From NCBI RefSeq assembly GCF_013177435.1, contig NZ_CP053627.1:450001-482000 (forward strand): a stretch of DNA of 32,000 nucleotides, given 5' to 3'. A program made the position numbers and the translations under genes. This document shows positions 6,234 to 29,370 of this stretch, one piece after another. The DNA comes from Xylella taiwanensis (GTDB lineage: Bacteria > Pseudomonadota > Gammaproteobacteria > Xanthomonadales > Xanthomonadaceae). Position 1 is the first letter of the stretch. Each line of letters starts with the position of its first letter. The notes under the pieces were generated by a model. It worked only from the letters and a program-made list of their open reading frames with translations. It was not told the DNA's origin and searched no databases.

Positions 6234-6235
6234 CC

Positions 6236-6670
6236 ATGCGCAAGTTCATGATGAGCGCGGTCGTCATGGCCGTAATGGTAGGCATCGCCGGCTGTGCAAC
6301 ACAAGGTCCGTATGGCAACTATGCGGCGGCTTCGCTTGATGCCAATAAGATGATGGCCGATGCAACGGTGGCGCAGCTTGTGTCGCTGTATCCACCAGCG
6401 CATACGCAGTTCAACTTTCAACAGCCGACTACGGTGCGGCCCTGCTGACCTCCCTGCGTGGCAAGGGCTATTCCGTCTTGGAGTACAGCCCGCAGCCGCA
6501 GGTTGCTCCTGCCAAATTTGCGGCGACCGCAGCGACTGCTAATGGACTCGCCACAGCCACCTCAGAGTCAGGCTTCCCCCTTAGTGACGTGGTTGATTCC
6601 CCTGAGTCAATGAGTCTGTACCGCATCACGGTTCATGTTGGTGTGCAGTCGATCAGTCGGGCATTCGTGA
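6236..6670 (+). pseudogene. trbH: TrbH-like lipoprotein (VirB7 position), frameshifted
   Basis: Lipobox MVGIAGC. YPPAHTQFNFQQP continues in another frame as DYGAALLTSLRGKGYSVLEY...LYRITVHVGVQSISRAF. The shift is near 6425. Confidence 0.55.
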
Positions 6671-7525: not shown

Positions 7526-7537
7526 CGCCAAGGAGAC

Positions 7538-8317: not shown

Positions 8318-8338
8318 CTCCAGGGGGATATTCATGAA
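8288..8338 (+). repeat. Direct repeat 1 flanking the eex-like gene
   Basis: TTCACTAAAAGTGTGGTTCGAAAATGGTAACTCCAGGGGGATATTCATGAA is about 46/51 identical to 8541-8591. It covers the last codons of trbJ, an RBS, and the ATG of the next gene. Confidence 0.8.
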
Positions 8339-8570
8339 ACGAGTTATAGCGATTGGCTGTGTATATTTAGGCTGCCTCCTGCTTGCCTCCTGCGGCAAGC
8401 CAGTGCATTCCGTCGATTACTACATGCAACACGAGGATGAGCGAAATGCCATGCTCGAAAAGTGCAAGACCGACCCAGACCTCGTAACGCGAGATGGGAA
8501 CTGCCGCAGCGCCGCCGATGCGCAGCTGAGGTCGGGTAATTTCACTAAAAGCCCGATTCGAAAATGGTAA
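8334..8570 (+). CDS. Small lipoprotein in the entry-exclusion position (TrbK/Eex-like)
   Basis: Lipobox LLLASCGKP, 78 aa, located between trbJ and trbL as RP4 trbK and pKM101 eex are. DYYMQHEDERNAMLEKCKTDP...NC motif. Confidence 0.6.
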   Translation: MKRVIAIGCVYLGCLLLASCGKPVHSVDYYMQHEDERNAMLEKCKTDPDLVTRDGNCRSAADAQLRSGNFTKSPIRKW

Positions 8571-8591
8571 CTTCAGGGGGATATTCATGAA
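8541..8591 (+). repeat. Direct repeat 2 flanking the eex-like gene
   Basis: TTCACTAAAAGCCCGATTCGAAAATGGTAACTTCAGGGGGATATTCATGAA. See 8288-8338. Confidence 0.8.
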
Positions 8592-10035
8592 GAAGCTCCC
8601 TGTAATGCCAGTGCTGGCATTGGTGCTATTGCTGTTTGCTGTGCAGGCGCATGCGCAAACTTCAGTGGATAGCGCTGGCTTGATGGATAACATTCTCGAC
8701 CATTTCTACCAGGTCGCTAATACCTGGTCAGCCAAGATGGTCAGCTACGCGAGCTGGCTGTTTTGGAGTCTCGTGCTATTGAGCATGGTTTGGACGTACG
8801 GGATGATGGCCTTGCGCAAGGCCGACATTCAGGAGTTCCTTGCCGAGACGATTCGGTTCCTGGCAGTAACTTGCTTCTTCTGGTGGATTCTAATCAATGG
8901 TCCGGGTATCGCAACTTCGATTATCAATTCGTTGCGGCAGATCGCCGCCAATGCCACCGGCTTGGATAACGCGCTCTCACCGTCCGGCATTGTCGATATT
9001 GGTTTTGACATTGCCTCGAATGTCTTTAAAAAGTCCTCGGTTTGGTCGCCAGTCGACTCTTTCCCCGGCATTATCATCTTGGCCGTGATTCTTGTTGTGC
9101 TAGCTTTGGTCAGTGTAAACATGCTTCTGCTGTTGGTGTCGAGTTGGATCCTATCCTACGGAGCGGTTTTCCTACTCGGCTTCGGCGGCGGCCGGTGGAC
9201 CTCCGACATTGCGATCAGTTACTACAAGACGGTGCTCGGCATCGGTATGCAGCTCTTCGCAATGATCTTGATCATCGGCATCGGTAATTCGTTCATCGAC
9301 CAGTATTACGCAACTATGTCGAAAGGCACGATCACGATGAATGGACTTCTGGTCATGCTCGTGGTGTCCATCATCCTGCTCGTGTTGGTAAATAAGGTTC
9401 CTCCGATGTTTGCCAGTATCGTAGGCGGTGGCGGCTCTACGGCAGGCATTGGCAATTTCGGTACGGGTGCTGCCCTCGGCGCTGCGGCCACTGCCGGCGC
9501 TGCCATCATGGCTGGTGCATCAAGCGCGGCAGGCGGGGCGTCAGCTATCAAGGCCGCATTCCAGTCGGCCCAGCAGAACATGGCGAGCGGTAGCGGCATG
9601 TTCTCGGGCAGTTCAGGCGGTGGCTCTGGTTCAGGTGGCAATTCTAGCGGTGCATCGTCCGGTGGCAGCAGCGGGTTCATATCGGCGATGGGTACAACAG
9701 GGCGCTTTGCTGCTGACATGGGAGCGAATCTCGCCAAGGGTGCGGGCCAAGTCGCTAAAGACAAGGTTGGGAGCATGGTTGCATCCGCTAAAGAGCGGAT
9801 CGCAGACACTACTGGCGGCAAGGTTGCATCCGCAATCCGCAACAACATGGGTGCATCTGGAACAGACGCCGGCAACGTCGATACCGGCAGCACGCAGACA
9901 GGATCTAACGGGGTGTCCGGGCAATACACCTTCGGAGGTGACAGCCTAGCAGGTGCAACGCAGGGCGGTTCTGAGACGGCCATGAATGATGAGGTGGCTG
10001 CGTTCGTAAACAAAGATCAGCCAAAGTCATTGTAA
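8587..10035 (+). CDS. trbL: TrbL/VirB6 polytopic inner-membrane T4SS protein with a Gly/Ser/Ala-rich tail
   Basis: Signal peptide plus multiple hydrophobic spans (WLFWSLVLLSMVWTYGMM, IIILAVILVVLALVSVNMLLLLVSSWILSYGAVFLLGFGGGRW). Low-complexity C-terminal ~190 aa. Confidence 0.8.
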   Translation: MKKLPVMPVLALVLLLFAVQAHAQTSVDSAGLMDNILDHFYQVANTWSAKMVSYASWLFWSLVLLSMVWTYGMMALRKADIQEFLAETIRFLAVTCFFWWILINGPGIATSIINSLRQIAANATGLDNALSPSGIVDIGFDIASNVFKKSSVWSPVDSFPGIIILAVILVVLALVSVNMLLLLVSSWILSYGAVFLLGFGGGRWTSDIAISYYKTVLGIGMQLFAMILIIGIGNSFIDQYYATMSKGTITMNGLLVMLVVSIILLVLVNKVPPMFASIVGGGGSTAGIGNFGTGAALGAAATAGAAIMAGASSAAGGASAIKAAFQSAQQNMASGSGMFSGSSGGGSGSGGNSSGASSGGSSGFISAMGTTGRFAADMGANLAKGAGQVAKDKVGSMVASAKERIADTTGGKVASAIRNNMGASGTDAGNVDTGSTQTGSNGVSGQYTFGGDSLAGATQGGSETAMNDEVAAFVNKDQPKSL

Positions 10036-16705: not shown

Positions 16706-16953
16706 GCCCTGCCTTCGGTCAGTTCTTCATTGAGAATTTCGCTGATGCTCTTGGCAGACACATTGCCGGCAAGTCCCTCGTGGATACGTGTGCCGAGCAG
16801 GGTTTTCAGTTCCTCCCATGCCTGATTGGCATCAGCGTCGCCGGGAAACAGCTTTTCCAGCGCATATTGCTTGATGGTCTTGCCCTGCAAGGCAGCCAGC
16901 GCTTTCAGGCTTTGGTGCTGCCGGTTTGTTATGTCTATGGTCAGGCGACTCAT
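16702..16953 (-). CDS. parD: ParD-like antitoxin
   Basis: MSRLTIDITNRQHQSLKALAALQGKTIKQYALEKLF (RHH-like N-terminus). 4-bp overlap with parE. Start at 16953. Confidence 0.75.
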   Translation of the reverse strand: MSRLTIDITNRQHQSLKALAALQGKTIKQYALEKLFPGDADANQAWEELKTLLGTRIHEGLAGNVSAKSISEILNEELTEGRA

Positions 16954-16983
16954 GGGATAACATCCACAATTATACATCCCCAC

Positions 16984-17003
16984 ATTAGCGCATATGTGCT
17001 AAT
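16984..17003. promoter_or_regulatory. Near-palindrome in the parD-tnpR divergent intergenic region (candidate res subsite or operator)
   Basis: ATTAGCGCATATGTGCTAAT has inverted halves around a central TATA/AT. It lies in the 222-bp gap between divergently oriented parD and tnpR. Confidence 0.4.
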
Positions 17004-17175
17004 GGAGCAAGCAGTTGTACATGGCAGTATTGGTGCAGGCTGTCGTAAAACACTTGTTTTCCGTCATATCTGCAACAGTCGTATGCACCCACCTCCTAGC
17101 GGCCCAAAAATTGTTCGGAAAACTCTGTCGCCATGCGTCATCATACGGAAACCTATTTTTGATGGTTATCCGCCT

Positions 17176-17769
17176 ATGTTGGTTGGCTACATGCGCGTGT
17201 CGTCGGACTCCGACCGGCAGAGTACGGACTTGCAGCGCGATGCGCTGCTCGCTGTCGGCGTCGATGTCCGGCACCTATTCGAGGATCGCGCTTCTGGTGC
17301 GAAGGATGACCGTGCCGGTTTGGTGCGGGCACTCGAATTCGTCCGGCCCGGCGACGTGCTGGTGGTGTGGAAGCTCGACCGGCTCGGCCGCTCGCTGTCG
17401 CATCTGCTTGCCATCGTGACCTCGCTCAAGGACAAACGGGTGGCGTTCCGTTCGTTGACGGAAAACTTGGATACCACGACACCCTCGGGTGAATTCCTGT
17501 TCCAGGTGTTCGGCGCGCTCGCGCAGTATGAACGCGCCTTGATCCAGGAGCGCGTCGTCGCCGGCCTGGCCACCGCACGTAAACGCGGCCGGATCGGTGG
17601 CCGGCCGCAGGCGATCACTGGCGAGAAGTTGGACGCCATCATCGCCGCGCTGGATGGCGGCATGTCCAAGGCGGCGGTATGCCGCAACTTCGGCGTCAAG
17701 CGAACCACGCTGATCGAGACCCTGGCACGGGTCAGTTGGACAGGCTCTCGTGGAGCGTCATCGCAATGA
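17176..17769 (+). CDS. tnpR: Serine recombinase/resolvase of Tn3-family element C
   Basis: MLVGYMRVSSDSDRQSTDLQRDAL...VLVVWKLDRLGRSLSHL...FGALAQYERALIQERV...GRIGGRP plus a C-terminal HTH. The stop overlaps the tnpA ATG (ATGA at 17766-17769). Confidence 0.9.
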   Translation: MLVGYMRVSSDSDRQSTDLQRDALLAVGVDVRHLFEDRASGAKDDRAGLVRALEFVRPGDVLVVWKLDRLGRSLSHLLAIVTSLKDKRVAFRSLTENLDTTTPSGEFLFQVFGALAQYERALIQERVVAGLATARKRGRIGGRPQAITGEKLDAIIAALDGGMSKAAVCRNFGVKRTTLIETLARVSWTGSRGASSQ

Positions 17770-19098
17770 CGGCCAAGAGCGAACGATTGACCGTCCTGTC
17801 GGACGCCGAGCAGGAAGCCTTGTACGGGTTGCCGGATTTCGACGACACCCAAAGGGTGGAATACCTTGCGCTGACCGAAGCCGAACTGGCGCTCGCCAGC
17901 GGCCGGCCCAGCCTCACCGCCCAGGTCTATTGCGTCTTGCACATCGGCTACTTCAAGGCCAAGCACGCCTTCTTCCGCTTCGACTGGAACGAGGTCGAAG
18001 ACGATTGCGTCTTCGTGCTGAGCCGTTATTTCCACGGCGAGCCGTTCCAGCGCAAGCCGATCACCAAGCACGAGCATTACGCCCAGCGTGAGCGGATCGC
18101 GGAGTTGTTCGGCTACCGGCCGTGGGGGGCCGACTTCATGCCGCAGCTTGTCGCGCTGGCGGCGCAAATCGTGCGGCGCGACGTGACGCCTGGGTTCGTC
18201 GCCGCCGAGCTGATCGTCTGGCTCAACGAACACAAAATCATCCGGCCGGGCTATACCACCCTGCAAGAGCTGGTCAGTGAAGCCCTGTCCGTCGAACGTC
18301 GGCGGCTGGGCGGGCCTGCTGGCGGAAGTGCTGGACAAACCAGCTAAGGCCGCACTGGGCCAGCTCCTGGTGCGTGATGACACCCTGTCGCAACTGGCAG
18401 CGCTCAAGCAAGACGCCAAGGATTTCGGCTGGCGTCAGATGGCCCGCGAGCGAGAGAAGCGCGCCACGTTGGAGCCGCTTCATGGGATCGCCAAGGCGCT
18501 GCTGCCCAAGCTCGGCGTCTCACATCAGAACCTGCTGTACTACGCCAGCATGGCGAACTTCTACACCATCCACGACCTGCGCAATCTGAAAGCCGATCAG
18601 ACGCACCTCTACCTGCTGTGCTATGCCTGGGTACGCTACCGGCAACTCTCCGACAACCTGGTCGATGCGATGGCCTACCACATGAAGCAATTGGAGGAGG
18701 AAAGCAGCGCAGACGCAAAGCAGTCCTTTGCTGCCGAACAGACACGCCGTCAGCAAAATACGCCGCAGCAGGTCGGCCGCCTGCTGTCGCTCTACATCGA
18801 CGACAGCGTGCCCGATCCCACGCCGTTCGGCGATGTTCGCCAGCGCGCTTACAAGATCATGCCGCGCGACACGCTGCAAACCACGGTACAGCGGATGAGC
18901 GAGAAGCCGGTGAGCAAACTGGCGCTGCACTGGCAGGCAGTGGACGGCCTGGCCGAGCGTATCCGCCGCCATCTTCGGCCGCTACACGTTGCGCTCGACC
19001 TGGCTGGCACCGACCCGAACAGCCCGTGGCTGGCGGCGCTGACCTGGGCCAAGGGCGTGTTCGCCAAGCAGCAGCAAATGAAGGATGGCATCTATTGA
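17766..19098 (+). pseudogene. tnpA: Tn3-family transposase, N-terminal ~440 codons, frameshifted and 3'-truncated
   Basis: MTAKSERLTVLSDAEQEALYGLPDFDDTQRVEYLALTEAEL... Frameshift near 18305 (an extra G in CTGGGCGGG restores ...ERRRLAGLLAEVLDKP). Transposase sequence stops near 19080, where the lower-GC insert begins. Confidence 0.8.
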
Positions 19099-19119
19099 TA
19101 GGTTTTTGTTTTACGGAGG

Positions 19120-19145
19120 TTGGATCTCGCAGTGCGGCGTATAAT
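19120..19145 (+). promoter_or_regulatory. Possible sigma70-type promoter for the TIR-caspase pair
   Basis: Perfect TATAAT at 19140-19145. The best -35 is TTGGAT at 19120-19125, but the spacer is only 14 bp, so this is weak. Confidence 0.3.
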
Positions 19146-19218
19146 GAATTTCGCCGGCTGGCTGCGCGAGGATGTGTGCCTTATACACTGCAAACACAAT
19201 TCATTAAGGAGCGTTACT

Positions 19219-19590
19219 ATGGCCGACAATAAAGTCATCTTCGTTGCCTTCGCCATCGAAGATGAGAACATCCGCAACATGATCAAGGGGCAGTCTTTGC
19301 GTACCGACTCGCCCTTTGAGTACATAGATATGTCTGTCAAAGAGGCTTACGAAGAAGAGTGGAAAAAGAAGGTGCGAACTCGCATCCTTCGCTCCGATGG
19401 CGTCCTTGTCATCGTCAGCAAAAACTCCCTCAACTCCAGTGGGCAGCAGTGGGAGATTCAATGCGCCAAGGAAGAGAAGAAAAAAATTCGTGGCATCTGG
19501 GCCTATAAGGAAGATCGCACCGACCTCGCCGGTGTGGATACGATGGTCTGGACTTGGGACAACATCGCTGCCTGGATTAATAGCCTTTAA
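19219..19590 (+). CDS. TIR-like domain protein (DUF1863 / ThsB-type), 123 aa
   Basis: AAGGAG at 19206-19211, 7 nt before the ATG at 19219. [13 protein letters not shown] (flavodoxin-like beta1), [36 protein letters not shown] (the W-E-I motif places a candidate catalytic Glu at E79). Size and motif order fit stand-alone bacterial TIR-like proteins. Confidence 0.75.
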
Positions 19591-20576
19591 TGCGTAAAGC
19601 ACTTGTAGTCGGCATCAACAGCTACGCCAACGTTTCACCACTCTATGGTTGCGTGAACGATGCGTTAGCGGTTAATACCATGCTTAGTCGGCACGCCGAT
19701 GGGTCAGTGAATTTCGGTGTTAAGTGTTTAACCGCCACTGGATCAAGCGGTTCGGTTGGGAGAGATGAGCTTCGAAAGGCCATCGCAAGCCTTTTCGATG
19801 GTGATGGTGAAGTTTCACTCTTCTACTTTGCCGGGCACGGTCACATCGAAGCGACGGGTGGCTACCTTTGCTCTTCTGACGTCAAGACCGGAAACGACGG
19901 CGTGCCGTTGGCCGAAATCATGACGATGGCCAACCAATCGAAGATTCAGAACCGCTTGATCATTCTCGATAGCTGTTACAGCGGTGTCACAGGAGGAAGC
20001 CCGTTGCAGCAGAAGGTAGCCGAGATCAGCGATGGAGTGACCATCCTCACTGCCTCAACAGCAGAACAGTATGCAACTGAAGAAAATAGGGCTGGGGTCT
20101 TTACCAGCTTGTTAATCGATGCGCTTGGCGGCGCTGCCGCAAACCTCGTCGGAGATGTGACGCCAGGCGGTGTCTATGCACATGTAGACCAGTCGCTCGG
20201 GCCATGGGCGCAACGACCTGTTTTTAAGACCAACGTTAAACGTTTCGTTTCCTTGCGGAAAGTACAACCTCCCTTGGAACCTGCGGAACTTCGCCGGATT
20301 TCAGAGTTTTTCCCGGCCCCTGGATTTCAGTTCCAGCTTGACCCGACGTATGAGCCAGAGCGGTATGAGACCTGGGCCACAGACCCCAAAAGCGTTCCAG
20401 CTCCAGACCCTGACCACAACGCGATCTTCAAAATCCTACAGAATTACAACCGCGTAGGGCTTGTTATGCCTGAAGGTGCTCCGCACATGTGGCATGCTGC
20501 AATGGAGAGCAAAACCATTCGTCTCACGGCTCTCGGTGAGTACTACCGACTGCTCGCAGTAAAGAACCTAATATAG
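19590..20576 (+). CDS. Caspase-like (peptidase C14 / metacaspase-type) protease with an uncharacterised ~110-aa C-terminal region, 328 aa
   Basis: [23 protein letters not shown]; His-Cys dyad in [10 protein letters not shown] (H83) and [11 protein letters not shown] (C129). The ATG shares one base with the TIR gene stop (TAATG). Confidence 0.85.
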
Positions 20577-20663
20577 GGGCTGGGGGTAGTTGAAGATCGG
20601 CCGCGTTATTGCGGTTGCAATTACCCGAACAGAAATTCAGAGATTCGACTCGTTGTGCTTGAC

Positions 20664-20772
20664 ATGAAGCGAATCGCAGTGCGTGAAGCGGTAGGCCGCT
20701 TCCGCACCGCGAACCCGCGCGTCTTCGGCTCGGTGCTTCATGGAACCGACCGTGATGGCAGCGATATCGATC
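20664..20772 (+). pseudogene. Nucleotidyltransferase (MNT-type antitoxin-like) 5' fragment, about 36 codons
   Basis: MKRIAVREAVGRFRTANPRVFGSVLHGTDRDGSDIDLLVDAL (GS...D.D motif), cut off at the junction with the second tnpR copy. No HEPN partner is present. Confidence 0.6.
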
Positions 20773-20774
20773 TG

Positions 20775-21222
20775 TTGGTTGATGCGCTCGCTCGAATTCG
20801 TCCACCCTGGCGACGTGCTGGTCGTGTGGAAACTAGACCGGCTCGGCCGCTCGCTGTCGCACCTGCTGGCCATCGTAACTTCGCTCAAAGACAAACGGGT
20901 GGCCTTCCGCTCGCTGACGGAAAACCTGGACACCACGACGCCATCGGGGGAATTTCTGTTCCAGGTATTTGGTGCGCTCGCGCAATACGAGCGCGCGTTG
21001 ATCCAGGAGCGCGTCGTCGCTGGCCTGGTTGCTGCCCGCAAACGTGGTCGGATCGGCGGACGGCCACAAGCAGTCACTGGTGAGAAGCTGGACACCATCG
21101 TAGCCGCGCTTGATGGTGGCATGTCCAAAGCGGCAGTATGCCGCAACTTCGGCGTCAAGCGAACCACGCTGATCGAGACCCTGGTACGGGTCGGTTGGAT
21201 GGGTTGCCGTGGAGCGTCATAG
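20775..21222 (+). pseudogene. tnpR: Second, 5'-truncated and diverged copy of the element-C resolvase (from about codon 55)
   Basis: ..LEFVHPGDVLVVWKLDRLGRSLSHLLAIVTSLKDKRVAFRSL... is collinear with 17335-17769. About 85-88% nt identity by eye, with mostly third-position differences. Confidence 0.8.
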
Positions 21223-21224
21223 CG

Positions 21225-21345
21225 ATGACAACTAAGAGCGAACGATCCCCCACCATTTGGCGATGTGCGCCAGTGCGCCTACAAGATCATGCCCCACGAT
21301 ACGCTCCAAACCAGCGCACAACGTATGAGCGTGAAGCCGGTGAAT
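21225..21345 (+). pseudogene. tnpA: Remnant of the element-C-type tnpA with a large internal deletion
   Basis: ATGACAACTAAGAGCGAACGA (compare 17766-17786) is joined directly to sequence matching 18818-18908 (..GGCGATGTGCGCCAGTGCGCCTACAAGATCATGCC..). Confidence 0.7.
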
Positions 21346-21396
21346 TACTAATGATGACCAAGGGACTTAACTAGCTAAGTCTCTCGGTCATAGGGT

Positions 21397-21633
21397 TTAA
21401 CTGCATTCAATGCTTAGGCGGGCTGCTTCGATCAGAACATCAATTGGTTTCCCGAGCAGAATCTCCGCTGTTTCAGCCGTGATGGGACGATCATCGGTTT
21501 GGTAGCCGTTTTCATCAATCTTTTCGAGACCCAGCATAGATGAATCAACCCATCCAAAGGGCGACTCTGGAATTCGGTTCCACTGATCCTCCCATTCGGC
21601 TTTTGTTTCCCATCCAGCACCACCAAGTGTCAA
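21397..21633 (-). CDS. Hypothetical small protein downstream of primase copy 2 (start uncertain, possibly TTG)
   Basis: Open frame ...LTLGGAGWETKAEWEDQWNRIPESPFGWVDSSMLGLEKIDENGYQTDDRPITAETAEILLGKPIDVLIEAARLSIECS*. No ATG near its 5' end and no family recognised. Confidence 0.3.
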   Translation of the reverse strand: MTLGGAGWETKAEWEDQWNRIPESPFGWVDSSMLGLEKIDENGYQTDDRPITAETAEILLGKPIDVLIEAARLSIECS

Positions 21634-21637
21634 TTTC

Positions 21638-22251
21638 CTACCCCATGCGAACCCGACGCGGTTGACGTTCCTGCTTCCATTCACGTTGTTGTTCCTGTTG
21701 CTGAGCACGTGTTTGATGCTTCTCGATAGCCTTGCCAACAGCCGCACGCACCTGGCGTTCAACACCTTCGATGCCAAGTACGCTTTTGGTGGCAAGATCG
21801 TTGAAGTCGGTGAAACTTTTCGGATTGTCCGTTTGTTCACCGGGAGCGAAAATCGGAAAGAACGCCGTACCACCCACAGCAAGCGCTGCTTCTTTGGCCT
21901 TGGTCTTGCCGGGATTATTCTGTAAGGACTGATCATCGTCACCGGCAATCACGATGGGCTTGTTCGGGAAAATTTTGTGCAACGCCTTGGCAACGACTTC
22001 GAGGTTGCCAGCATCAAATGCGGCAACTGTCCCATAACCCAGGGCCTGCGACACCTGCGCGGCGGTGGCATAGCCCTCGCCGATGACGATCACGGGTGCT
22101 GCTGCAATAGCATCAAGGCCACCTATTGGATGAAAGCAACCCTCCTTGCGACTCCGCTTCGCAAACTGCTTAGTATCGTCCTCTTGGATGTATGGCATCG
22201 TCCATTGCTTACCATCCGAATCGATGCCCGGAATGTAAGTTTTCTGGCCAT
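21638..22251 (-). pseudogene. Primase 3' portion (Toprim region), second copy, 5'-truncated at the cassette array
   Basis: MPYIQEDDTKQFAKRSRKEGCFHPIGGLDAIAAAPVIVIGEGYATAAQVSQALGYGTVAAFDAGNLEVVAKALHKIFPNKPIVIAGDDDQ... This is collinear with 3181-3618 but lacks that copy's two deletions. Homology ends at CTGGCCAT (22244-22251). Confidence 0.8.
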
Positions 22252-22416
22252 ATCACTGTTTTATAAAGTGGTAATACCGTGAATGGACTCAGCAATACCC
22301 AGATGCTTCAAGGGATGTTCCATAACGGCGACCCTATTCGGGGGAGCGATTCTGCCGCAGCTATCTACTCTCTGCAGCGCCCGGATCTGATGCACACCGC
22401 CATGTCAGATGTTTGA
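22252..22416 (+). pseudogene. 5'-truncated copy of the 89-aa ORF family (leftmost, broken cassette)
   Basis: ..SGNTVNGLSNTQMLQGMFHNGDPIRGSDSAAAIYSLQRPDLMHTAMSDV* aligns with codons ~37-89 of 23113-23382. Confidence 0.7.
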
Positions 22417-22594
22417 TGCAACACGATATTGTTGGGTTTCATCAAGGATTTCACAGGCATGTATATCACCCAGGTGAGGAGGTCAAAAAAACAGGAGGGA
22501 TTCTTAAATAGGAATGATGATTAAACAACAGGAACGCTTTTACCCAGCATCACAGGTGTTGTATCTCTATATTTAAACTCTTAAAGGACATGAC

Positions 22595-23095
22595 ATGCCG
22601 TTTATTAATGAAATTCCCGCAGCGGAAGATATCGAAAAATATGGTTTGCCTTATAAAAACGATCTGAATTTACCCATGCGTCTGCGTAATGAATGGACTG
22701 TGGATCGTGAACGCAACTTTCATTTATACGGACTTGGTGCTACTGGAAATCAAGCGTTTGAAGAAAAAATTTATCATCGCTTTAAACTTTATTTGAATGG
22801 AAAAAATTTTATTGTTGAATTGGAAGATGGGGGGGCCTTGAGGTTTGATGACAATCCTAATGTTGTTGTATGGAGCAAATTAATGTCGATTTGGTTGATA
22901 CCTCATGATCAGGTGAGCCCCCTGAAGATATTGCCGCCCTCGGCCTGGGAAACCCCCGATGCGCCGCAACCGCTATTGGATAATTATTCGCTCAATCAAT
23001 TTGTCACCATTCTGAAAGAAGCATTCACTGTGTATGGAGACGGTTACGCTAATCGTTACATCCATACTCCCATTGTGGTCCGTTTTGGATTTTAA
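22595..23095 (+). CDS. Cassette protein 1 (166 aa), unknown family; candidate immunity-type protein
   Basis: AAGGA RBS. MPFINEIPAAEDIEKYGLP...WTVDRERNFHLYG...LYLNG.NFIVEL...SPLKILPPSAWETPDAPQPLLDNYSLNQF..ILKEA...PIVVRFGF. Paralogous to 23561 and 24537. Confidence 0.8.
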   Translation: MPFINEIPAAEDIEKYGLPYKNDLNLPMRLRNEWTVDRERNFHLYGLGATGNQAFEEKIYHRFKLYLNGKNFIVELEDGGALRFDDNPNVVVWSKLMSIWLIPHDQVSPLKILPPSAWETPDAPQPLLDNYSLNQFVTILKEAFTVYGDGYANRYIHTPIVVRFGF

Positions 23096-23112
23096 ATCAT
23101 AGGAAGATAGTC

Positions 23113-23382
23113 ATGGCACTTACTGCAGAACAAGCCAACGCATTACTTGACAGCATCACTACCAAGGAGCAGTTGCGCAATTTAATTAATCAGCTGGATA
23201 TCAACAGCGGTGGCCGTACCACCATTTTATACAGCGGTCATACTGTGAATGGACTCGATAACTCCCAGATTCTCCAGGGCATGCTGCATCACGGCGACGC
23301 TATCCGGGGGAGCGATCACGCCGCGGCTCTTTACTCTCCGCAGCGCCGGTATATGATGCACACCGCCATGTCAGATGTTTGA
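23113..23382 (+). CDS. 89-aa ORF: first ~64 codons homologous to the RTX protein N-terminus, then a 25-aa family-specific tail
   Basis: MALTAEQANALLDSITTKEQLRNLINQLDINSGGRTTILYSGHTVNGLDNSQILQGMLHHGD | AIRGSDHAAALYSPQRRYMMHTAMSDV*. RBS AGGAAG. Confidence 0.6.
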   Translation: MALTAEQANALLDSITTKEQLRNLINQLDINSGGRTTILYSGHTVNGLDNSQILQGMLHHGDAIRGSDHAAALYSPQRRYMMHTAMSDV

Positions 23383-23560
23383 TGTAACACGATATCGTCG
23401 GGTTTCATCAAGCATTTCACAGGCATGTATATCACCCAGGTGAGGAGATCAAAAAAACAGGAAGGATTCTTAAACAGGAATGATGATTAAACAACAGGAA
23501 CACTTTTACCCAGCATCACAGGTGTTGTATCTCTATATTTAAATTCTCAAAGGACATCAC

Positions 23561-24070
23561 ATGCCGTTTATTAATGAAATTCCCACCGCGGAAGATATTG
23601 AAAAATATGGATTGCCTTTTAAAAAAGATTTGACCTTGCGTATGGAACTGCGCAGACAATGGACTGTGGATCGTGAACGCAACTTTCACTTATACGGAGG
23701 TGGTGCTAATGCAAATCAGGCATTTACAGATGTTTTTTATTATGAGTTCGATCTTTATCTGAATGGTTCGAAATTTATTATCGAATTGGACCGCGACCGT
23801 ACTCGTGGACCCTCGAATTTTGAAGACAACCCCTATGTCATCACGTGGAGCAAATTGATGTCGATCAAGGTGATGCCTCGTGATCAAGTGAGCCCCCTGA
23901 AGACATTGCCTCCCTCGGCCTGGGAAAACCCCGATGCACCGCAACCTTTATTGGACAATTATTCGCTCAATCAATTTATCGCCATCCTGAAAGAAGCGGT
24001 GACTGTGCGTGGTGCAGGTGACTCTAATCGTCACATCCATAATCCCATTGTGGTCCGTTTTGGATTTTAA
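23561..24070 (+). CDS. Cassette protein 2 (169 aa), paralogue
   Basis: Same N- and C-terminal blocks as cassette 1. The central third has diverged (..GGGANANQAFTDVFYYEFDLYLNGSKFIIELDRDRTRGPSNFEDNPYVITW..). Confidence 0.8.
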   Translation: MPFINEIPTAEDIEKYGLPFKKDLTLRMELRRQWTVDRERNFHLYGGGANANQAFTDVFYYEFDLYLNGSKFIIELDRDRTRGPSNFEDNPYVITWSKLMSIKVMPRDQVSPLKTLPPSAWENPDAPQPLLDNYSLNQFIAILKEAVTVRGAGDSNRHIHNPIVVRFGF

Positions 24071-24087
24071 ATCAGAGGAAGATCAGC

Positions 24088-24357
24088 ATGGCACTCACTG
24101 CAGAACAAGCCAACGCATTACTTGGCAGCATTACCACTCAAGAACAGTTACGCGATTTAATTAATCGGCTGGATATCAACAGTGGCGGCAGTACCACCGT
24201 TTTATACAGTGGTAATACCGTGAATGGACTCGATAACTCCCAAATTCTCCAGGGGATGTTGCATAACGGCGACGCTATTTGGGGGAGCGATTACGCTGCG
24301 ACTCTTTACTCTCCGCAGCGCCGCTATATGCTGCAAACAGCTGTGTCAGATCTTTGA
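24088..24357 (+). CDS. 89-aa ORF, second full copy
   Basis: MALTAEQANALLGSITTQEQLRDLINRLDINSGGSTTVLYSGNTVNGLDNSQILQGMLHNGD | AIWGSDYAATLYSPQRRYMLQTAVSDL*. Confidence 0.6.
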   Translation: MALTAEQANALLGSITTQEQLRDLINRLDINSGGSTTVLYSGNTVNGLDNSQILQGMLHNGDAIWGSDYAATLYSPQRRYMLQTAVSDL

Positions 24358-24536
24358 TGAAACACGATATGATGGTGTTTCATCAAGGATTTCACAGGCA
24401 TGTACATCATTATCAGATGAGGAGGTCAAGAAACAGGAGGGATTCTTAAACAGGAATGATGATTAAACAACAGGAACGCTTTTACCCAGCATCACAGGTG
24501 TTGTATCTCTATATTTAAACTCTCAAAGGACATCAC

Positions 24537-25043
24537 ATGCCGTTTATTAATGAAATTCCATCAGAAGAAGATATCGAAAAATATGGATTGCTTCATCTTT
24601 ATAAAAAAAACGAGATATTACCTATCGAAATACGCCGTCAATGGACAGTTGATCATGAGCGTAACTTTTATTTATGTGGAATCGGTCAAAGAGGGAGTCA
24701 AGCGAGTGATGAACCCGTTTATTACCAATTCCAGTTATATCTTAATGGCCCCAAATTTATTGTTGAATTGGATCGTGGTTATGGCCCCTCGACTTTCAAT
24801 GACAATCCCTATGTTGTTAGATGGGACACAATTGTGTCTATCAACGCGGTTTCCAATCCTATGAAACCTCTCGTTTCGTTGCCACATTCAGCTTGGAAGA
24901 ACTCCGATGAACCGCAACCAGTGTTGGATAACTATTCACTTAATGAATTCATCACGATTTTGAAAGAGGCGTTGACAACACGCGGAGCGGGGGAAAGTAA
25001 CCGTCACATCCATCATCCCATTGTGGTCCAGTTTGGATTCTAA
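24537..25043 (+). CDS. Cassette protein 3 (168 aa), the paralogue immediately upstream of the full-length RTX gene
   Basis: The most diverged copy (..LLHLYKKNEILPIEIRRQWTVDHERNFYLCGIGQRGSQASDEPVYYQFQLYLNGPKFIVELDRGYGPSTFNDNPYVVRWDTIVSINAVSNPMKPLVSLP..). Confidence 0.8.
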   Translation: MPFINEIPSEEDIEKYGLLHLYKKNEILPIEIRRQWTVDHERNFYLCGIGQRGSQASDEPVYYQFQLYLNGPKFIVELDRGYGPSTFNDNPYVVRWDTIVSINAVSNPMKPLVSLPHSAWKNSDEPQPVLDNYSLNEFITILKEALTTRGAGESNRHIHHPIVVQFGF

Positions 25044-25068
25044 AATTTTAAATCAGAGGAAGATCAGC

Positions 25069-28000
25069 ATGTCACTCACCGCAGAACAAGCCAACGCATT
25101 ACTCGACAGTATCACTACCAAAGAGCAACTGCGCGATTTAATTAACCAGCTCGATATCAACAGTGGCGGCAGTACCACCGTTTTATACAGTGGTAATACC
25201 GTGAATGGACTCGATAACTTCCAAATTCTCCAGGGCATGCTGCATAACGGCGACGATATCAGGGTCATCGATAACACCGAAGCGGCCAAGTTTCTGAATG
25301 TCACGCCTGGCGATCCCAATCGAAATGATGTACTTGAGGAGAAACTGCAACAAATTTTTGGTGATGACCCTAATGAGCGCAACAGCCGCTCCAACCAATT
25401 CCTTTTCGGCGAAAGAACTGCCGATGGCACCCGTTTCCCGAACGGCGCTTGGGACAACATATCGGCCCGCTTTGTGGATGCCACCGTCGGCGAGGTGCGC
25501 ACGCTGACCGGCGGTGCGTCTGTCAATGGCGTGTTTAATCAAACCGAACTGCCGCGCCTGCTGAATAACCCCAATATCACCTCGGTGGATGGCCTGCCCT
25601 TATCCGACTTGCAACGGCTGGGGCCGGCGGCGGCCTTCCAGGCGATTTCAGCGCAATCCGACAACTTGTCCGGCTACATCAAGGTGGCCATTGATGCCGA
25701 TGGCCGCATCATACATTTACCTGATGGCGTGCCACGCTTGGATAGCCGCCAGTACTTCGGGCTGACCGGTGTAGAAGGCAAACCCCCGCTGGTGGATACG
25801 GGGCGTTACGGCAGCTTTGACAGATTCATCCCCGAGCGCCGCAGCGGTCATGTGGATGGGGCGCGCCTGGTGCAGGAGATCAAAGACGGCTATCAGAGCG
25901 CCTCGCGGTTGCTGGGGCCGGAGTCTGGCGCGGCACGGGCGAATGCGCTGCGCGTACTGGGCAAAATGGGTGTGGCGGCGGATCTGCTCTCGCTGGCGAC
26001 GATGGTGCACGATGCCAATGCGGCCTACGCCCGCGGCGATACCAGCGCCGGCAACACGATTGTGCAGGATTGGACCAGCCGCTATCTGGGCGGGCTGATG
26101 GGTGGTTTGATGGAGGCACAAGCAGTCGGGTCGCTGCTGACGCCGTTGTATATGGATGGCCCGGCCGGGGCGATTTTTGCTTCCATCCTGACGCTAGCGG
26201 CGGGTGTGGAGGGCACCTTCTTAGGCAGCCATTACCTGGGGGATGTGCTGAACAAGATATTCGACCAATTGCATCGGCTCGGCCAGGTGTCGGAGCAGGC
26301 GCTCCACGATTGGATCACGCACATGAGCGATGCCTTCCACCGCCTATCCGGTCAACTACACAAAGACAGCGACGCTTTTATGACGCTGCTTCATGACCTG
26401 TTCGGCTATCAGCGTGATGTCCGCGACCCGCTGGTGCTGGATCTGGATGGCGACGGCATCAAACACGCCAGCGGCTGGATTAAATCCGATGACGGCTTGC
26501 TAGTGCTGGACCGCAACGGCAACGGACACATTGATGACGGCAGCGAACTGTTCGGTGCCGATACCCTATTGGCCAACGGCCAGAAAGCCACCTCCGGCTT
26601 TGAGGCACTGCGCGATCTGGACAGCAACGGGGATGGCGTCTTTGATGCCGGCGACACCCGCTTTACCGACGTGCGCGTGTGGCGCGATCTCAATCAGGAT
26701 GGCCGCTCCCAGACCAACGAGCTGTTCACCCTCTCCAGCCTGGGCATTGCCTCGATCGCCCTGACGCCCACCGACACCCAGCGCGTCAACTTGAACGACG
26801 GTAATTTCATTGATGGCCGCGGCACCTACACCCGCAGCGATGGCCGCACCGGCGTCGTTGGCAACCTGCAATTGGGTCTGGACCACTTCTACCGCGACTA
26901 CAACGGCGCCCACGCCCAAGTGACCGTGAGCGAGGCGGCCCGCGCCTTACCAGCCATCACCGGCAGCGGCGCGGTGCGCGATCTGCAAGAAGCCGCCAGC
27001 CAGTCACCGGCCTTATTGGCGGCCGTTCAAGCGCTATTGTCCGGCACCACTCCGGGCACCCTGCGCGCCGCGCTGGATCAGGTCATTGCCCTGTGGGCCG
27101 ACACCTCAACCATGCGTAGCAGCGAGGAGCGCCTCGAAGCCTCCGGGGACATGCAGCGCAATGTGTATTACCAATGGTTCGTCCCTGCTGCCGTGATCGC
27201 CCAGGGCCAGGAGGCCGTTCAGACCTGGACCCAGCAGCAGCATGCCCGGCTTGGGCCGATCATCGGCATCCTGGAGAAGTTCAACGGCTCCACCCTGGTC
27301 AGCGATCACAACGGCCAGATCTCCATGGGGGGGCAGATCTTCAGCTGGAACCGCGTGGTCCATCCTGACGGACACGGCGAAGAGGTAATGACCTTCCGGT
27401 TCCTGCCGGAGCAGTTCGATCCCTTGATTGACCCCTTCACGAAGGCCTATGCCCACCTGAAAGAATCCATCTATATCCGGCTGGTGCTCCAGCAGCGGCT
27501 CAGCGATTACCTGTCCGGACTCACCATGACATATCACCACGGTGTGATGGGCTGGGATGCCTCCGGGGTGCACGCCAAGCTGGATGACACCTGGCAGCAC
27601 AACAAAGCCCAGGCGCTTCAGGATGCGATGGACCTGTACCGCTACGGCAGCGATGCCCTTGCTGGCAGCGACTGGAAGCCGCTGGATACCTTGCGCGACA
27701 TGATCGACCGTACCGCCGCCGCCCCTGATGGCATACAGGCCCTGAAGGAGGCGGGTACGCCCTTTGTGTCTGGAGATCTGGAAGGCAGTGCCGCGGCGGA
27801 TATCATGTTCGGCGATGCCGGAGCCAATACCCTCAGTGGCGGCGCTGGCGACGATGTGCTGTCCGGCGGCGGCGGAGACGACACGCTGTACGGTGGTGAG
27901 GGCAACGATATCCTGCGTGGCGATGCGGGCAACGACCTGCTGTACGGCAGCTCCCAAAACAATACCTACCTGTTTAACCAAGGAGACGGCCACGACACCC

Positions 28001-29370
28001 TCGTGGATCAAGGCGGTAGCGACACCATCGTGTTTGGCACAGGCATTGCCGCCAGCGACATCCGAGGATGGTTGCAAGGTCAGGATGTAGTGCTGGATTT
28101 GGGCAACGGCCACGACAGCATTCGGTTCAAGAACAGGGTGAACTCCGATGGAGGGCGTGACACACGCACCGACATCGAACAGATCACCTTTGCCGATGGC
28201 ACCGTCTGGACCGGAAAGACGTTGAATGACATGGCGTTAACCACACAGGGCACCTCCGGCAACGACACCCTGCAGGGCTGGCAAGGCCGGGACACCATGC
28301 TGGGCGGCGCTGGCGATGACACGCTGTCCGGCCGCGGCGGCGATGATGTGCTGCTGGGCGGGGATGGCAACGACCTGCTGGACGGCGGCAGCGGCAGCAA
28401 CCGTCTGGAGGGCGGCGCCGGTAACGATGTGCTCAAGGTGTCTGCGTATTACTCCTCTGACAACGTGCTGAGCGGTGGTACCGGCGATGACACGCTGTAC
28501 GGCAGTAATAATTCGGACACGTATTTGTTCGAGAAAGGAGACGGCCACGACACCATTGTGGAACAGGGCGGTACCGACAAACTCGTGTTGGGCGCCGGGA
28601 TTGTGGCCAGTGATGTCAAGGTGCTGCGCGAAGGTCAAGACGTGGTGCTGGACCTGGGCAACGGCCACGACAGCATCCGCTTGAAGGACTGGTTGACCTC
28701 CGATGGCTACCGTAGCAGCACTGCCCACATTGAGCAGATCGTGTTTGCTGATGGCACGGTCTGGACTGGGGAGACGTTAAGCGACATCGGCCTGACGACC
28801 GTCGGCACCTCTGGCGACAACACCCTGCAGGGCTGGCAAGGCCGGGACATCCTGCTGGGCGGCGCTGGCGATGACGTGCTGTCCGGCGGCGCTGGCACCA
28901 ACCGTCTGGAAGGCGGTGCCGGTAACGACGTGCTCAAAGTGTCGGCGTATTACTCCTCTGACAACGTGCTGAGCGGTGGTACCGGCGATGACACGCTGTA
29001 CGGCAGTAATAATTCGGACACGTATTTGTTCGAGAAAGGAGACGGCCACGACACCCTCGTGGAACAGGGCGGTACCGACAGGCTGGTGTTTGGTGAGGGA
29101 CTGCATCGTGAAGAGGCGCTCTTTACGAAGTCAGGAGACGATCTCTCCATCCTTTTCAATCATGGGGACGATCAGGTGACCGTGGCAGGCTGGTTCAGTA
29201 CGCCGGCGCATCAGGTGGAATCTTTCGTATTCCAGGATGGGACGGTGCTGTCCGGTGAGGTGGAGCGTTTGATTGCGGCGATGGCGATGCCGTCCGCGGT
29301 GACCACGACACAGGCGACGGTGCGCGACACTAACGAGCATCACTTACTGGTCGCCAGTTCGATTGTCTGA
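25069..29370 (+). CDS. Large RTX-type (hemolysin-type Ca-binding nonapeptide repeat) protein, 1433 aa; probable T1SS substrate with an N-terminal effector region
   Basis: Start MSLTAEQ at 25069 with RBS AGAGGAAG (the listed 25021 Met lies inside the upstream gene). DLDGDG / NGNGHIDDGSELFG / DSNGDGVFD Ca-binding-like block. Three modules of GGAGNDVL / GGxGDDTLYG nonapeptides at 27.8-29.1 kb. Unstructured C-terminal tail ...HHLLVASSIV*. Confidence 0.9.
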   Translation: MSLTAEQANALLDSITTKEQLRDLINQLDINSGGSTTVLYSGNTVNGLDNFQILQGMLHNGDDIRVIDNTEAAKFLNVTPGDPNRNDVLEEKLQQIFGDDPNERNSRSNQFLFGERTADGTRFPNGAWDNISARFVDATVGEVRTLTGGASVNGVFNQTELPRLLNNPNITSVDGLPLSDLQRLGPAAAFQAISAQSDNLSGYIKVAIDADGRIIHLPDGVPRLDSRQYFGLTGVEGKPPLVDTGRYGSFDRFIPERRSGHVDGARLVQEIKDGYQSASRLLGPESGAARANALRVLGKMGVAADLLSLATMVHDANAAYARGDTSAGNTIVQDWTSRYLGGLMGGLMEAQAVGSLLTPLYMDGPAGAIFASILTLAAGVEGTFLGSHYLGDVLNKIFDQLHRLGQVSEQALHDWITHMSDAFHRLSGQLHKDSDAFMTLLHDLFGYQRDVRDPLVLDLDGDGIKHASGWIKSDDGLLVLDRNGNGHIDDGSELFGADTLLANGQKATSGFEALRDLDSNGDGVFDAGDTRFTDVRVWRDLNQDGRSQTNELFTLSSLGIASIALTPTDTQRVNLNDGNFIDGRGTYTRSDGRTGVVGNLQLGLDHFYRDYNGAHAQVTVSEAARALPAITGSGAVRDLQEAASQSPALLAAVQALLSGTTPGTLRAALDQVIALWADTSTMRSSEERLEASGDMQRNVYYQWFVPAAVIAQGQEAVQTWTQQQHARLGPIIGILEKFNGSTLVSDHNGQISMGGQIFSWNRVVHPDGHGEEVMTFRFLPEQFDPLIDPFTKAYAHLKESIYIRLVLQQRLSDYLSGLTMTYHHGVMGWDASGVHAKLDDTWQHNKAQALQDAMDLYRYGSDALAGSDWKPLDTLRDMIDRTAAAPDGIQALKEAGTPFVSGDLEGSAAADIMFGDAGANTLSGGAGDDVLSGGGGDDTLYGGEGNDILRGDAGNDLLYGSSQNNTYLFNQGDGHDTLVDQGGSDTIVFGTGIAASDIRGWLQGQDVVLDLGNGHDSIRFKNRVNSDGGRDTRTDIEQITFADGTVWTGKTLNDMALTTQGTSGNDTLQGWQGRDTMLGGAGDDTLSGRGGDDVLLGGDGNDLLDGGSGSNRLEGGAGNDVLKVSAYYSSDNVLSGGTGDDTLYGSNNSDTYLFEKGDGHDTIVEQGGTDKLVLGAGIVASDVKVLREGQDVVLDLGNGHDSIRLKDWLTSDGYRSSTAHIEQIVFADGTVWTGETLSDIGLTTVGTSGDNTLQGWQGRDILLGGAGDDVLSGGAGTNRLEGGAGNDVLKVSAYYSSDNVLSGGTGDDTLYGSNNSDTYLFEKGDGHDTLVEQGGTDRLVFGEGLHREEALFTKSGDDLSILFNHGDDQVTVAGWFSTPAHQVESFVFQDGTVLSGEVERLIAAMAMPSAVTTTQATVRDTNEHHLLVASSIV
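27800..29100 (+). repeat. Three tandem RTX modules inside the gene, with long near-identical DNA stretches
   Basis: For example, 28426-28560 and 28917-29051 (GGTAACGA.GTGCTCAA.GTGTC.GCGTATTACTCCTCTGACAACGTGCTGAGCGGTGGTACCGGCGATGACACGCTGTACGGCAGTAATAATTCGGACACGTATTTGTTCGAGAAAGGAGACGGCCACGACACC) are nearly identical. Confidence 0.85.

Follow-up and report, generated by a model that had tools for sequence, protein, structure and literature searches.

Arrays of small genes upstream of RTX genes were described in Xylella fastidiosa by Gambetta, Matthews & Syvanen (BMC Genomics 2018; PMC5935956). At all four X. fastidiosa RTX loci they found "modular repeats", each an "ORFan" plus an "N-terminal repeat", arranged in tandem upstream of a full-length RTX gene, with homology that stops abruptly, an inverted repeat close to this point, a GC content of 41-44% and a module number that was different in every strain. 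The four RTX proteins carried mosaic N-termini, one stub was most similar to Ralstonia, and all four genes were expressed in diseased grapevine leaves; the ORFan and the N-terminus were given no function, and a new kind of mobile element was proposed. Here we analyze such a locus in a 32,000-nucleotide stretch of the Xylella taiwanensis chromosome (contig NZ_CP053627.1, positions 450,001 to 482,000; hereafter the window), in which an array of small genes precedes an RTX gene. With a probability of roughly 0.6, we read this locus as a type-I-secreted polymorphic toxin, the mirror image of contact-dependent inhibition (CDI) and Rhs toxins, together with its antidote genes. The array geometry was already published for X. 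fastidiosa in 2018, its function having been left open; new here are the assignment of the RTX N-terminus to an NADase fold, the analysis of the partner family, and the swapping of orphan and proximal positions. In the literature searched, no paper gives the fold of ADP-ribosyl cyclases (ARC) to RTX N-termini or names the Xylella ORFans immunity genes.

In CDI and Rhs loci, orphan partner genes are attached to toxin-gene fragments beside the full-length gene. The X. taiwanensis array resembles the CDI (cdiA-CT/cdiI) and Rhs orphan arrays in having extra partner genes on toxin-gene fragments whose number and order vary between strains, but its polarity is mirrored: the fragments are 5' ends that lie upstream, they hold no alternative toxin domain, and they are truncated before the active site. 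For the catalytic domain, the closest described systems are Tac1/Tci1, carried by an LXG protein of the type VIIb secretion system (T7SSb), the Pantoea ARCtox/ARCimm pair on a PAAR protein of a type VI secretion system (T6SS), and Tox-ARC (Zhang et al. 2012). ARCtox and Tac1 are CD38-fold enzymes that kill via NAD(P)+ depletion, each neutralized by an adjacent immunity protein (PMC12605009, PMC12356396). These systems share with the X. taiwanensis pair a homologous catalytic domain with its indispensable Glu and its Trp for substrate binding, a neighbouring small partner gene, and several delivery scaffolds. In the known ARC toxins the domain is C-terminal and the partner lies downstream, whereas in X. 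taiwanensis the domain is extreme N-terminal and the partner lies upstream and has no Imm74 match. Imm74 is the typical ARC partner and not a universal one: a different fold serves in the T6SS members that were reported alongside Tac1. The scaffolds that deliver the X. taiwanensis head family, RTX proteins of a type I secretion system (T1SS) and effectors of the Xanthomonadales type IV secretion system (X-T4SS), are both absent from the earlier ARC accounts: the polymorphic toxin survey of Zhang et al. 2012 has Tox-ARC only with the type II, type V, type VI and type VII secretion systems, and the two 2025 ARC toxin papers (PMC12605009, PMC12356396) never mention RTX or T1SS.

Among RTX proteins, FrpC (with FrpD, Neisseria meningitidis) and ApxIVA likewise hold a self-processing module (SPM) with an Asp-Pro bond, which follows an N-terminal domain of ~400-450 residues and precedes the RTX repeats, and likewise have a partner gene directly upstream. 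FrpD is an outer-membrane lipoprotein of another fold, unlike the X. taiwanensis small protein, which has no signal peptide; the SPM chemistry of FrpC is described, and no function has been assigned to the protein. The type I system exports RTX proteins. MARTX toxins carry their effector domains internally, and a cysteine protease domain frees these inside eukaryotic cells. MARTX with RDTND (Vibrio vulnificus) is likewise a T1SS-exported RTX protein with an NADase of related fold and release by autoprocessing; the X. taiwanensis protein differs in the N-terminal placement of the domain, in its SPM and in a dedicated small partner gene. Finally, Bayer-Santos et al. 2019 (PMC6759196) found that the toxic N-terminal domain of Smlt3024 (Stenotrophomonas maltophilia) is common to X-T4SS effectors and many RTX N-termini, and proposed FrpC-like RTX proteins as T1SS antibacterial effectors with FrpD as immunity partner, so the general idea is already in print. 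The toxicity of Smlt3024 is apparently periplasmic and its immunity protein Smlt3025 is a periplasmic FrpD-like lipoprotein, unlike the X. taiwanensis pair. Homology of the head to Smlt3024 was considered and rejected: hhalign of Smlt3024(4-260), partly rebuilt from the supplement, against our N-domain profile gave a probability of 1.8%. BLASTP of the same partly rebuilt Smlt3024 against the N-terminus of another Xylella RTX protein (P0041) found no significant similarity.

To characterize the N-terminus of the X. taiwanensis RTX protein, we compared residues 1-250 with solved structures. A single-sequence phmmer search against PDB retrieved 9RO8 (Pantoea ananatis ARCtox) at E = 1e-4 and 9OUF (Streptococcus parasanguinis Tac1) at E = 0.0095, and with a profile of 16 diverse N-domains the same two entries were matched at E = 4.1e-8 and 5.9e-6. 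The AlphaFold model of this region had a predicted local distance difference test score (pLDDT) of 83-94 over most of its length, and all top 50 Foldseek matches of the model against PDB had the ARC fold, including ARCtox (probability 1.00), CD38, Tac1, the V. vulnificus MARTX NADase RDTND and the Aplysia cyclase. W128, S132 and E160 are invariant among 16-27 diverse homologues; W128 and E160 align with W323 and E356 of ARCtox, and E160 also with Tac1 E573 and CD38 E226. Mutagenesis has shown that ARCtox W323 and E356 are required for toxicity and Tac1 E573 for NAD(P)+ hydrolysis (PMC12605009, PMC12356396). Pfam, NCBIfam and PADLOC scans of residues 1-260 returned nothing even at E <= 10. Taken from sequence and predicted structure, the head is a homologue of the antibacterial NAD(P)+-depleting toxins ARCtox and Tac1, with predicted NADase activity. 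An earlier reading of the window made from its letters alone (the sequence-only reading) had expected an N-terminal effector, and this expectation found its counterpart in a head homologous to proven antibacterial NADase toxins that keeps the catalytic Glu and Trp.

We then asked how widely this head occurs. An exhaustive HMMER search yielded 505 cluster representatives, 233 of them at E <= 1e-10, in proteins of up to 4249 aa, and in nearly all of the best 150 of the 505 the match begins within the first ~40 residues. Among 27 long homologues, 24 carry RTX repeats, 21 HCBP_related domains, three a Tle1-like lipase domain and two an XVIPCD. The protein at locus L003 is a non-RTX X-T4SS effector in which the ARC-like head precedes a Tle1-like, a PG-binding and an XVIPCD domain; effectors of the bacteria-killing T4SS of Xanthomonadales carry the XVIPCD as their signal at the C-terminus (PMC6759196). 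By domain content, the head is a cassette on at least two delivery systems, both of which read a C-terminal signal, so that the effector must be N-terminal. The same logic, a C-terminal secretion signal that places the effector at the N-terminus and its partner gene upstream, formed the core of the sequence-only reading, and it holds across scaffolds, with the small gene upstream whatever the C-terminal delivery module.

Behind the head, the RTX protein continues with a helical region with hydrophobic glycine-rich segments, which is a candidate membrane-insertion or translocation module. It is followed by the FrpC-type SPM: the FrpC SPM structure 6SJW matched residues 457-544 at E = 3.4e-25, with D453-P454 just before the match, and precomputed Pfam assignments for the protein include PF26745. 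The Asp-Pro site lies downstream of both the head and the helical region and is positioned to release both. A paralogous Xylella RTX (P0041/P0043) with an unrelated N-terminus has in common with this protein the ~55 residues that lead up to the Asp-Pro bond and all of the sequence beyond it, in agreement with the variable N-terminus on a constant remainder in Table 1 of Gambetta et al. (PMC5935956); these last ~55 residues mark the variable/constant junction. Pfam identified the C-terminal part by HemolysinCabind (2.3e-42) and HCBP_related (2.5e-29) domains. T1SS genes adjoin the loci of three relatives (L001, L022 and L024) as well as a paralogous X. fastidiosa locus, L013. In the metagenome-assembled genome of L024, T1SS ABC and membrane fusion protein genes lie upstream. 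At L013 (X. fastidiosa CP072933, 2389-9308), HlyB (C39 ABC) and HlyD genes are followed by open reading frames (ORFs) of 207, 90 and 205 aa and then by an RTX gene, truncated at 435 aa in this strain, whose product has an unrelated N-terminus and shares the ~55 residues before the Asp-Pro bond. This type of Xylella RTX N-terminus and its upstream ORFs matched no known family or assignable domain.

The gene directly upstream of the RTX gene belongs to a family whose members invariably begin with M-x-F-x-N-E and conserve a WT.DRE motif. Its predicted structure is alpha+beta (pLDDT 82.7), and its sequence contains no signal peptide or lipobox. A profile search found 904 clusters of 130-210 aa, in which every named member is "hypothetical", and precomputed Pfam was blank for the best 120 of the family matches. 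Neither the small proteins nor the stubs of the array matched Pfam, NCBIfam or PADLOC even at E <= 10. The sequence-only reading had named a match to a known non-immunity family, such as an RTX-modifying enzyme, as evidence against itself; no such match appeared in Pfam, NCBIfam, PADLOC or PDB. Its three other refuting observations, an RTX N-terminus devoid of toxic or enzymatic activity, a fixed array in related genomes and 89-aa ORFs conserved independently elsewhere, did not turn up either. An FrpD-like partner was rejected as well, FrpD being absent from the PDB sequence and fold matches and the small protein lacking a lipobox or signal peptide. Elsewhere in X. taiwanensis, ~40 locus tags from the array, FUT69_04965 (P0032) encodes a further family member, which is internally deleted and 122 aa long.

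We examined the linkage of the two families by running hidden Markov models (HMMs) of the small protein and of the head on six-frame translations of the loci: the window, four X. fastidiosa genomes and all 10 non-Xylella loci with a full-length gene (Limnobacter, the T4SS effector locus L003, Halarcobacter, Methylomagnum, Methylosoma and five metagenome contigs). In every locus with a full-length gene visible, a small-gene homologue ends 0-30 nt 5' of the head gene. Among the scans for loci, one of genomes with small-protein patterns confirmed at least 5, and one of metagenomes yielded 4. In L024 the adjacent copy is a weak match and a strong match lies 1.1 kb upstream; between the strong homologue and the weak one directly before the toxin gene there is a 2OG-Fe(II) oxygenase gene (6506-7057). 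Since the small gene adjoins the head gene on RTX and T4SS scaffolds alike, the partner belongs to the head and not to the RTX scaffold.

Such strict adjacency across secretion routes would also be expected of a chaperone, secretion adaptor or activator of the N-terminal domain rather than an antidote. Precedents exist, in that RtxC activates pore-forming RTX toxins and ORF1 upstream of apxIVA is reportedly required for ApxIVA activity, and both the strong conservation of the extreme N-terminus and of WT.DRE and the lack of likeness to known immunity families would fit such a role. The small protein, however, lacks any motif of an acyltransferase or other enzyme and is without matches in Pfam, NCBIfam or PDB, no known adaptor is common to T1SS and X-T4SS substrates, and chaperones do not normally come as several diverged paralogues that swap proximal and orphan positions between strains. 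We regard a helper role as highly improbable.

The array consists of three ~975-bp units and a broken fourth, each unit comprising a 166-169 aa gene, an 89-aa stub of the RTX 5' end and a conserved spacer (Table 1), with families of direct repeats 966-982 bp apart; the small gene and the stub are the only ORFs in the unit. Over stub codons 1-64, 21-22 of the 192 nt are mismatched to the start of the RTX gene. Stub-RTX identity runs at 80-100% and drops to ~35-40% after ~25260, with weak similarity persisting for ~40 nt more. The small proteins are 59-72% identical in pairwise comparison and their genes 51-70% identical in the central part at the nucleotide level, while the spacers are 91.5-93.8% identical between units overall and 96-98% over 23460-23560. 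GC content is 0.39-0.46 in the array, 0.50 over 25001-25500 and 0.60-0.64 further into the RTX gene. This pattern of repeats, ORFs and divergence cannot be chance. In these descriptive points the sequence-only reading was borne out: ORF listing, direct repeats and alignment recovered its ORF and repeat coordinates, unit size and broken left unit; DNA alignment agreed on the extent and end of the stub-RTX homology; and the small proteins are, as it had said, more diverged than their flanks, centrally most so, with GC rising along the RTX gene. Compared with the X. fastidiosa loci of Gambetta et al., the X. taiwanensis locus is alike in its modules of ORFan plus RTX 5' copy upstream of a full-length RTX gene, in the homology break, in a hairpin ~100 nt past it and in the low GC of the array; it differs in the junction codon (~64 and not ~86), in the stub length and in a left end truncated by mobile DNA.

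Table 1. Features of the RTX locus and its left flank in the X. taiwanensis window (positions in the window)
Feature	Position	Strand	Details
Conjugative T4SS genes VirB9/CagX, TrbI/VirB10, TrbL/VirB6; two resolvases; Tn3-like transposase fragment; Toprim fragment	5343-10035 and 16780-22198		
Toprim fragment	21638-22198	minus	adjoins truncated left stub
Truncated, decayed stub of the leftmost broken unit	22245..22416	+	corresponds to stub codons ~37-89, in-frame stop; from DNA alignment
Spacer copy 0	22417..22594	+	conserved hairpin ~22403-22455; ribosome-binding region of next gene
Small gene 1	22595..23095	+	166 aa; orphan copy of putative immunity family
Stub 1	23113..23382	+	89 aa; codons 1-64 like RTX 5' end, then 25-codon tail; without W128 and E160
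Spacer copy 1	23383..23560	+	hairpin 23369-23421 (25-nt arms); 17-nt repeat x2.3 at 23455-23493
Small gene 2	23561..24070	+	169 aa; orphan copy
Stub 2	24088..24357	+	89 aa
Spacer copy 2	24358..24536	+	hairpin 24344-24396
Small gene 3	24537..25043	+	168 aa; RTX-proximal; putative cognate immunity gene
RTX gene	25069-29370	+	1433 aa from ATG
RTX residues 1-250	25069..25818	+	ADP-ribosyl-cyclase (CD38-fold) NADase-like toxin domain
W128 codon	25450-25452	+	within RTX head
Glu160 codon (predicted catalytic)	25546-25548	+	within RTX head
RTX residues ~262-445	25852..26403	+	helical; hydrophobic glycine-rich segments ~291-314 and 339-388
Asp453-Pro454 scissile bond and FrpC-type SPM	26425..26958	+	
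RTX nonapeptide repeat blocks and three HCBP_related domains	27784..29268	+	forms the part for type I secretion together with the C-terminal tail (up to 29370)

The NCBI gene calls of the X. taiwanensis chromosome (CP011800 / CP087686) are identical to those of the window and give the same ORF lengths. Orthology to the X. fastidiosa RTX locus is seen in RTX residues 1-250 (74-79% identical), the shared small-gene family and the same downstream genes: tadA, mntR and mntH come after the RTX gene, and the same flank and gene families are present in X. fastidiosa subspecies fastidiosa (Xff), pauca and multiplex. These relatives allowed us to follow the evolution of the array. The three small-gene ORFs are intact, with a synonymous divergence (dS) of 0.47-1.42 and a ratio of non-synonymous to synonymous divergence (dN/dS) of 0.17-0.38 overall and 0.25-0.43 in the central third (pairwise NG86), values which indicate that all three are maintained under purifying selection. 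The diversifying selection that the sequence-only reading had proposed for the small proteins is thus not what the pairwise comparison gives. The RTX-proximal small gene 3 is the most divergent Xylella member, at 56-64% to the others. Small gene 2 is 73-80% identical to X. fastidiosa copies versus 64% to small gene 3, and both orphans are nearer to X. fastidiosa copies (up to 80%) than to small gene 3. Within X. fastidiosa, the orphan Xff_2 shares 93-94% identity with the copies that are RTX-proximal in pauca and multiplex, versus 75% with the proximal copy of its own genome, and this Xff proximal copy has its best match (84%) in an orphan of pauca. Across 10 pairs, which are non-independent and share phylogeny, the identity of the ARC head tracks that of the proximal small protein (r = 0.94), a correlation that is only indicative. 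The subspecies also differ in how many modules they have, in the length of their stubs (115-157 aa) and in which copies are frameshifted. Variation among relatives had been anticipated from the single sequence, and it is present both in module number and order and in the fact that an RTX-proximal type is an orphan elsewhere.

Another expectation, that the displaced modules would carry alternative toxins, fared worse. The stubs are all of one toxin type, corresponding to HMM positions 1-64/87 of the head, and only the partner genes differ between modules; all stubs end before residue ~90, and so are without W128 and E160. Outside Xylella, arrays of small gene plus 5' stub occur in Stenoxybacter acetivorans and two metagenome contigs (L014 968-2713, L017 242-1438, L023 5923-7262), and the stub of the L014 contig is an internally deleted RTX copy in which residue ~50 is joined to the post-SPM region. 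The recurrence of module-like arrays in unrelated lineages, the low GC of the array, the mosaic N-termini and Ralstonia-like stub of the published loci, and the conserved inverted repeat near the end of the stub-RTX homology would all suit the published proposal that the modules are a mobile element (PMC5935956). We nevertheless find this very unlikely: the ~975-bp unit has no transposase, integrase or terminal-repeat structure, the junction codon varies by species (~64 in X. taiwanensis versus ~86 in X. fastidiosa, with different tails), the low GC continues into the toxin head, and the L014 stub is a plain internal deletion of the kind that fits duplication, deletion and unequal crossing-over.

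The stubs and spacers might themselves be functional, the stubs as small proteins or decoys, the hairpin as an RNA regulator, or stub and spacer together as homology arms for cassette exchange. This idea is compatible with the toxin-antidote reading, and we hold it to be doubtful, with evidence on either side. The stub ORFs are intact and of equal length, dN/dS is ~0.1 in codons 1-64 versus ~0.5 in the tail, and stubs of 48-87 codons recur in independent lineages; a low dN/dS is, however, also expected from conversion by, or copying from, functional toxin genes, and stub 2 matches the RTX gene at every position (100%) over one stretch of 60 nt. Tails and junctions vary between species, and the leftmost stub has decayed. 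The spacer, which contains the 17-nt tandem repeat AAACAGGAAGGATGATT, is 92-98% identical between units beside stub and small-gene synonymous sites with a dS of 0.45-1.4. Hairpins with 25-nt arms lie over the stop codon of each stub, in X. taiwanensis (Table 1) as in X. fastidiosa (L010 7821-7876, 8829-8884 and 9840-9895). The hairpin is the sole part of tail and spacer kept between the two species (77%), shows one compensatory G-C to A-T change, and its region folds better than shuffled sequences (z = -2.95), but it has no Rfam family, the search of the array giving only a sub-threshold chance match. Gene conversion from the live gene, a regulatory RNA and homology-arm selection are all possible causes of the spacer and stub conservation. 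An origin of the stub tail and spacer in the RTX 3' end or other local DNA was rejected, as they matched only the other units and, over ~57 nt of hairpin, X. fastidiosa. A promoter and terminator scan of the array found fewer promoter-like sites than in shuffled sequences and was uninformative.

Taken as a toxin-antidote locus, the system would work as follows. The RTX head (1-250) would be an ARC-fold NAD(P)+ glycohydrolase, followed by a hydrophobic helical module, the SPM, and the RTX repeats and secretion signal for export. Once the protein is exported, extracellular Ca2+ would fold the repeats and the SPM; Asp453-Pro454 would then break, and the 453-residue head would be freed or cross-linked to a target surface. 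The hydrophobic module may assist entry of the head into the target cytoplasm, where NAD(P)+ would be depleted. In the producer, the proximal 168-aa protein would be cytoplasmic and would bind and block the enzyme. The two upstream paralogues would be retained orphan antidotes, kept by purifying selection and shuffled by unequal recombination, and the stub behind each orphan would be a non-toxic 5' remnant of the toxin gene, because the toxin gene is 4.3 kb long, any duplication across the antidote gene has to stop within it, and copies would be tolerated only if non-catalytic.

Who the target might be is a separate matter. The same components could serve a host-directed virulence factor, in which the NADase head acts on plant (xylem parenchyma) or insect cells, the small gene provides self-protection and the copies further upstream have no selective importance. 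Streptococcus pyogenes is shielded in this way from its own NADase by IFS, and the structurally related MARTX RDTND is a host-directed NADase. ARCtox is toxic to yeast too, the pairwise dN/dS is without an arms-race signal, and the expression that was detected for all four RTX genes of X. fastidiosa in leaves of diseased grapevines (PMC5935956) would fit as well. The head and small-gene pair, however, is present in free-living methanotrophs, Limnobacter and Halarcobacter, and on an XVIPCD-bearing effector of the bacteria-killing X-T4SS type; the three paralogues are intact and under purifying selection despite a dS of 0.5-1.4, and proximal and orphan types are swapped between subspecies. We consider host-directed use unlikely, and we lean towards interbacterial use, because the pair occurs in free-living bacteria and on a bacteria-killing-type T4SS effector and because diverged orphans are maintained.

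Several points weigh against the reading as an antibacterial toxin with antidotes. The significant match to solved ARC toxins spans only ~52 residues of the C-lobe, the Foldseek E-values are modest (5.9e-3), and TM-scores of 0.52-0.54 are reached only when normalized by small targets. The N-lobe Trp of ARCtox, W273, aligns with Tyr40/Phe here (in a weak N-lobe alignment), and the second Glu position (CD38 E146 / Tac1 E516) is not invariant, the candidates being D68, which is variable, and E71, which is mostly Glu/Asp and Pro in one homologue; because of the replaced Trp and the variable second Glu, the head enzyme could be inactive or of different chemistry. No known immunity family, and thus not Imm74 either, is matched by the small protein (16 members, no Pfam hit at E <= 1); sequence and profile searches against PDB gave noise, and Foldseek of the confident model had a best E of 0.4. 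There are no T1SS genes within the window, and an enzyme that folds at the N-terminus sits uneasily with type I secretion. Pairwise dN/dS shows no sign of an arms race. Host-directed NADases also need an antidote gene, so the target could be plant or insect cells.

The left flank of the locus differs from that of X. fastidiosa. In X. taiwanensis, mobile DNA stands in place of the proA-side flank, with conjugative T4SS genes, resolvases, a transposase fragment, a TIR-caspase pair and a Toprim fragment to the left of the array; this replacement truncated the array at ~22245, which accounts for the broken leftmost unit. The TIR-caspase pair lies at 19120-20576 (+): its first gene encodes a ThsB-like TIR protein (Pfam 4e-6; PADLOC ThsB 1.8e-6), and directly after it comes a Peptidase_C14 caspase-like protein (Pfam 1.4e-15; PADLOC 'caspase' 1.9e-20). 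Flanked by the resolvase genes and the transposase fragment, the two are a candidate TIR-caspase defence pair on mobile DNA.

More tentatively, SPM-containing RTX proteins may form a large and so far unrecognized class of reverse-built, type-I-secreted polymorphic antibacterial toxins. Their N-terminal CD38-fold NADase warhead (at least 505 clusters) would be freed by Ca2+-triggered Asp-Pro self-cleavage outside the cell, would enter through the hydrophobic module and would be neutralized by cytoplasmic immunity proteins of a new family (at least 904 clusters), with the upstream modules, mirror images of the CDI/Rhs orphans, serving as an immunity reservoir and as homology arms for exchange of the proximal cassette. 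If this is true, the four RTX loci of Xylella, a quarantine plant pathogen, would gain a function that has been unassigned since the first genome, with a bearing on strain competition in the xylem and in insect vectors and on biocontrol strains. The FrpC-type "clip-and-link" module would gain a purpose, the release of an N-terminal warhead, and the known ways in which ARC toxins are delivered would be extended by type I secretion and N-terminal placement. It would also define an immunity-like family that is widespread and blank in current databases.

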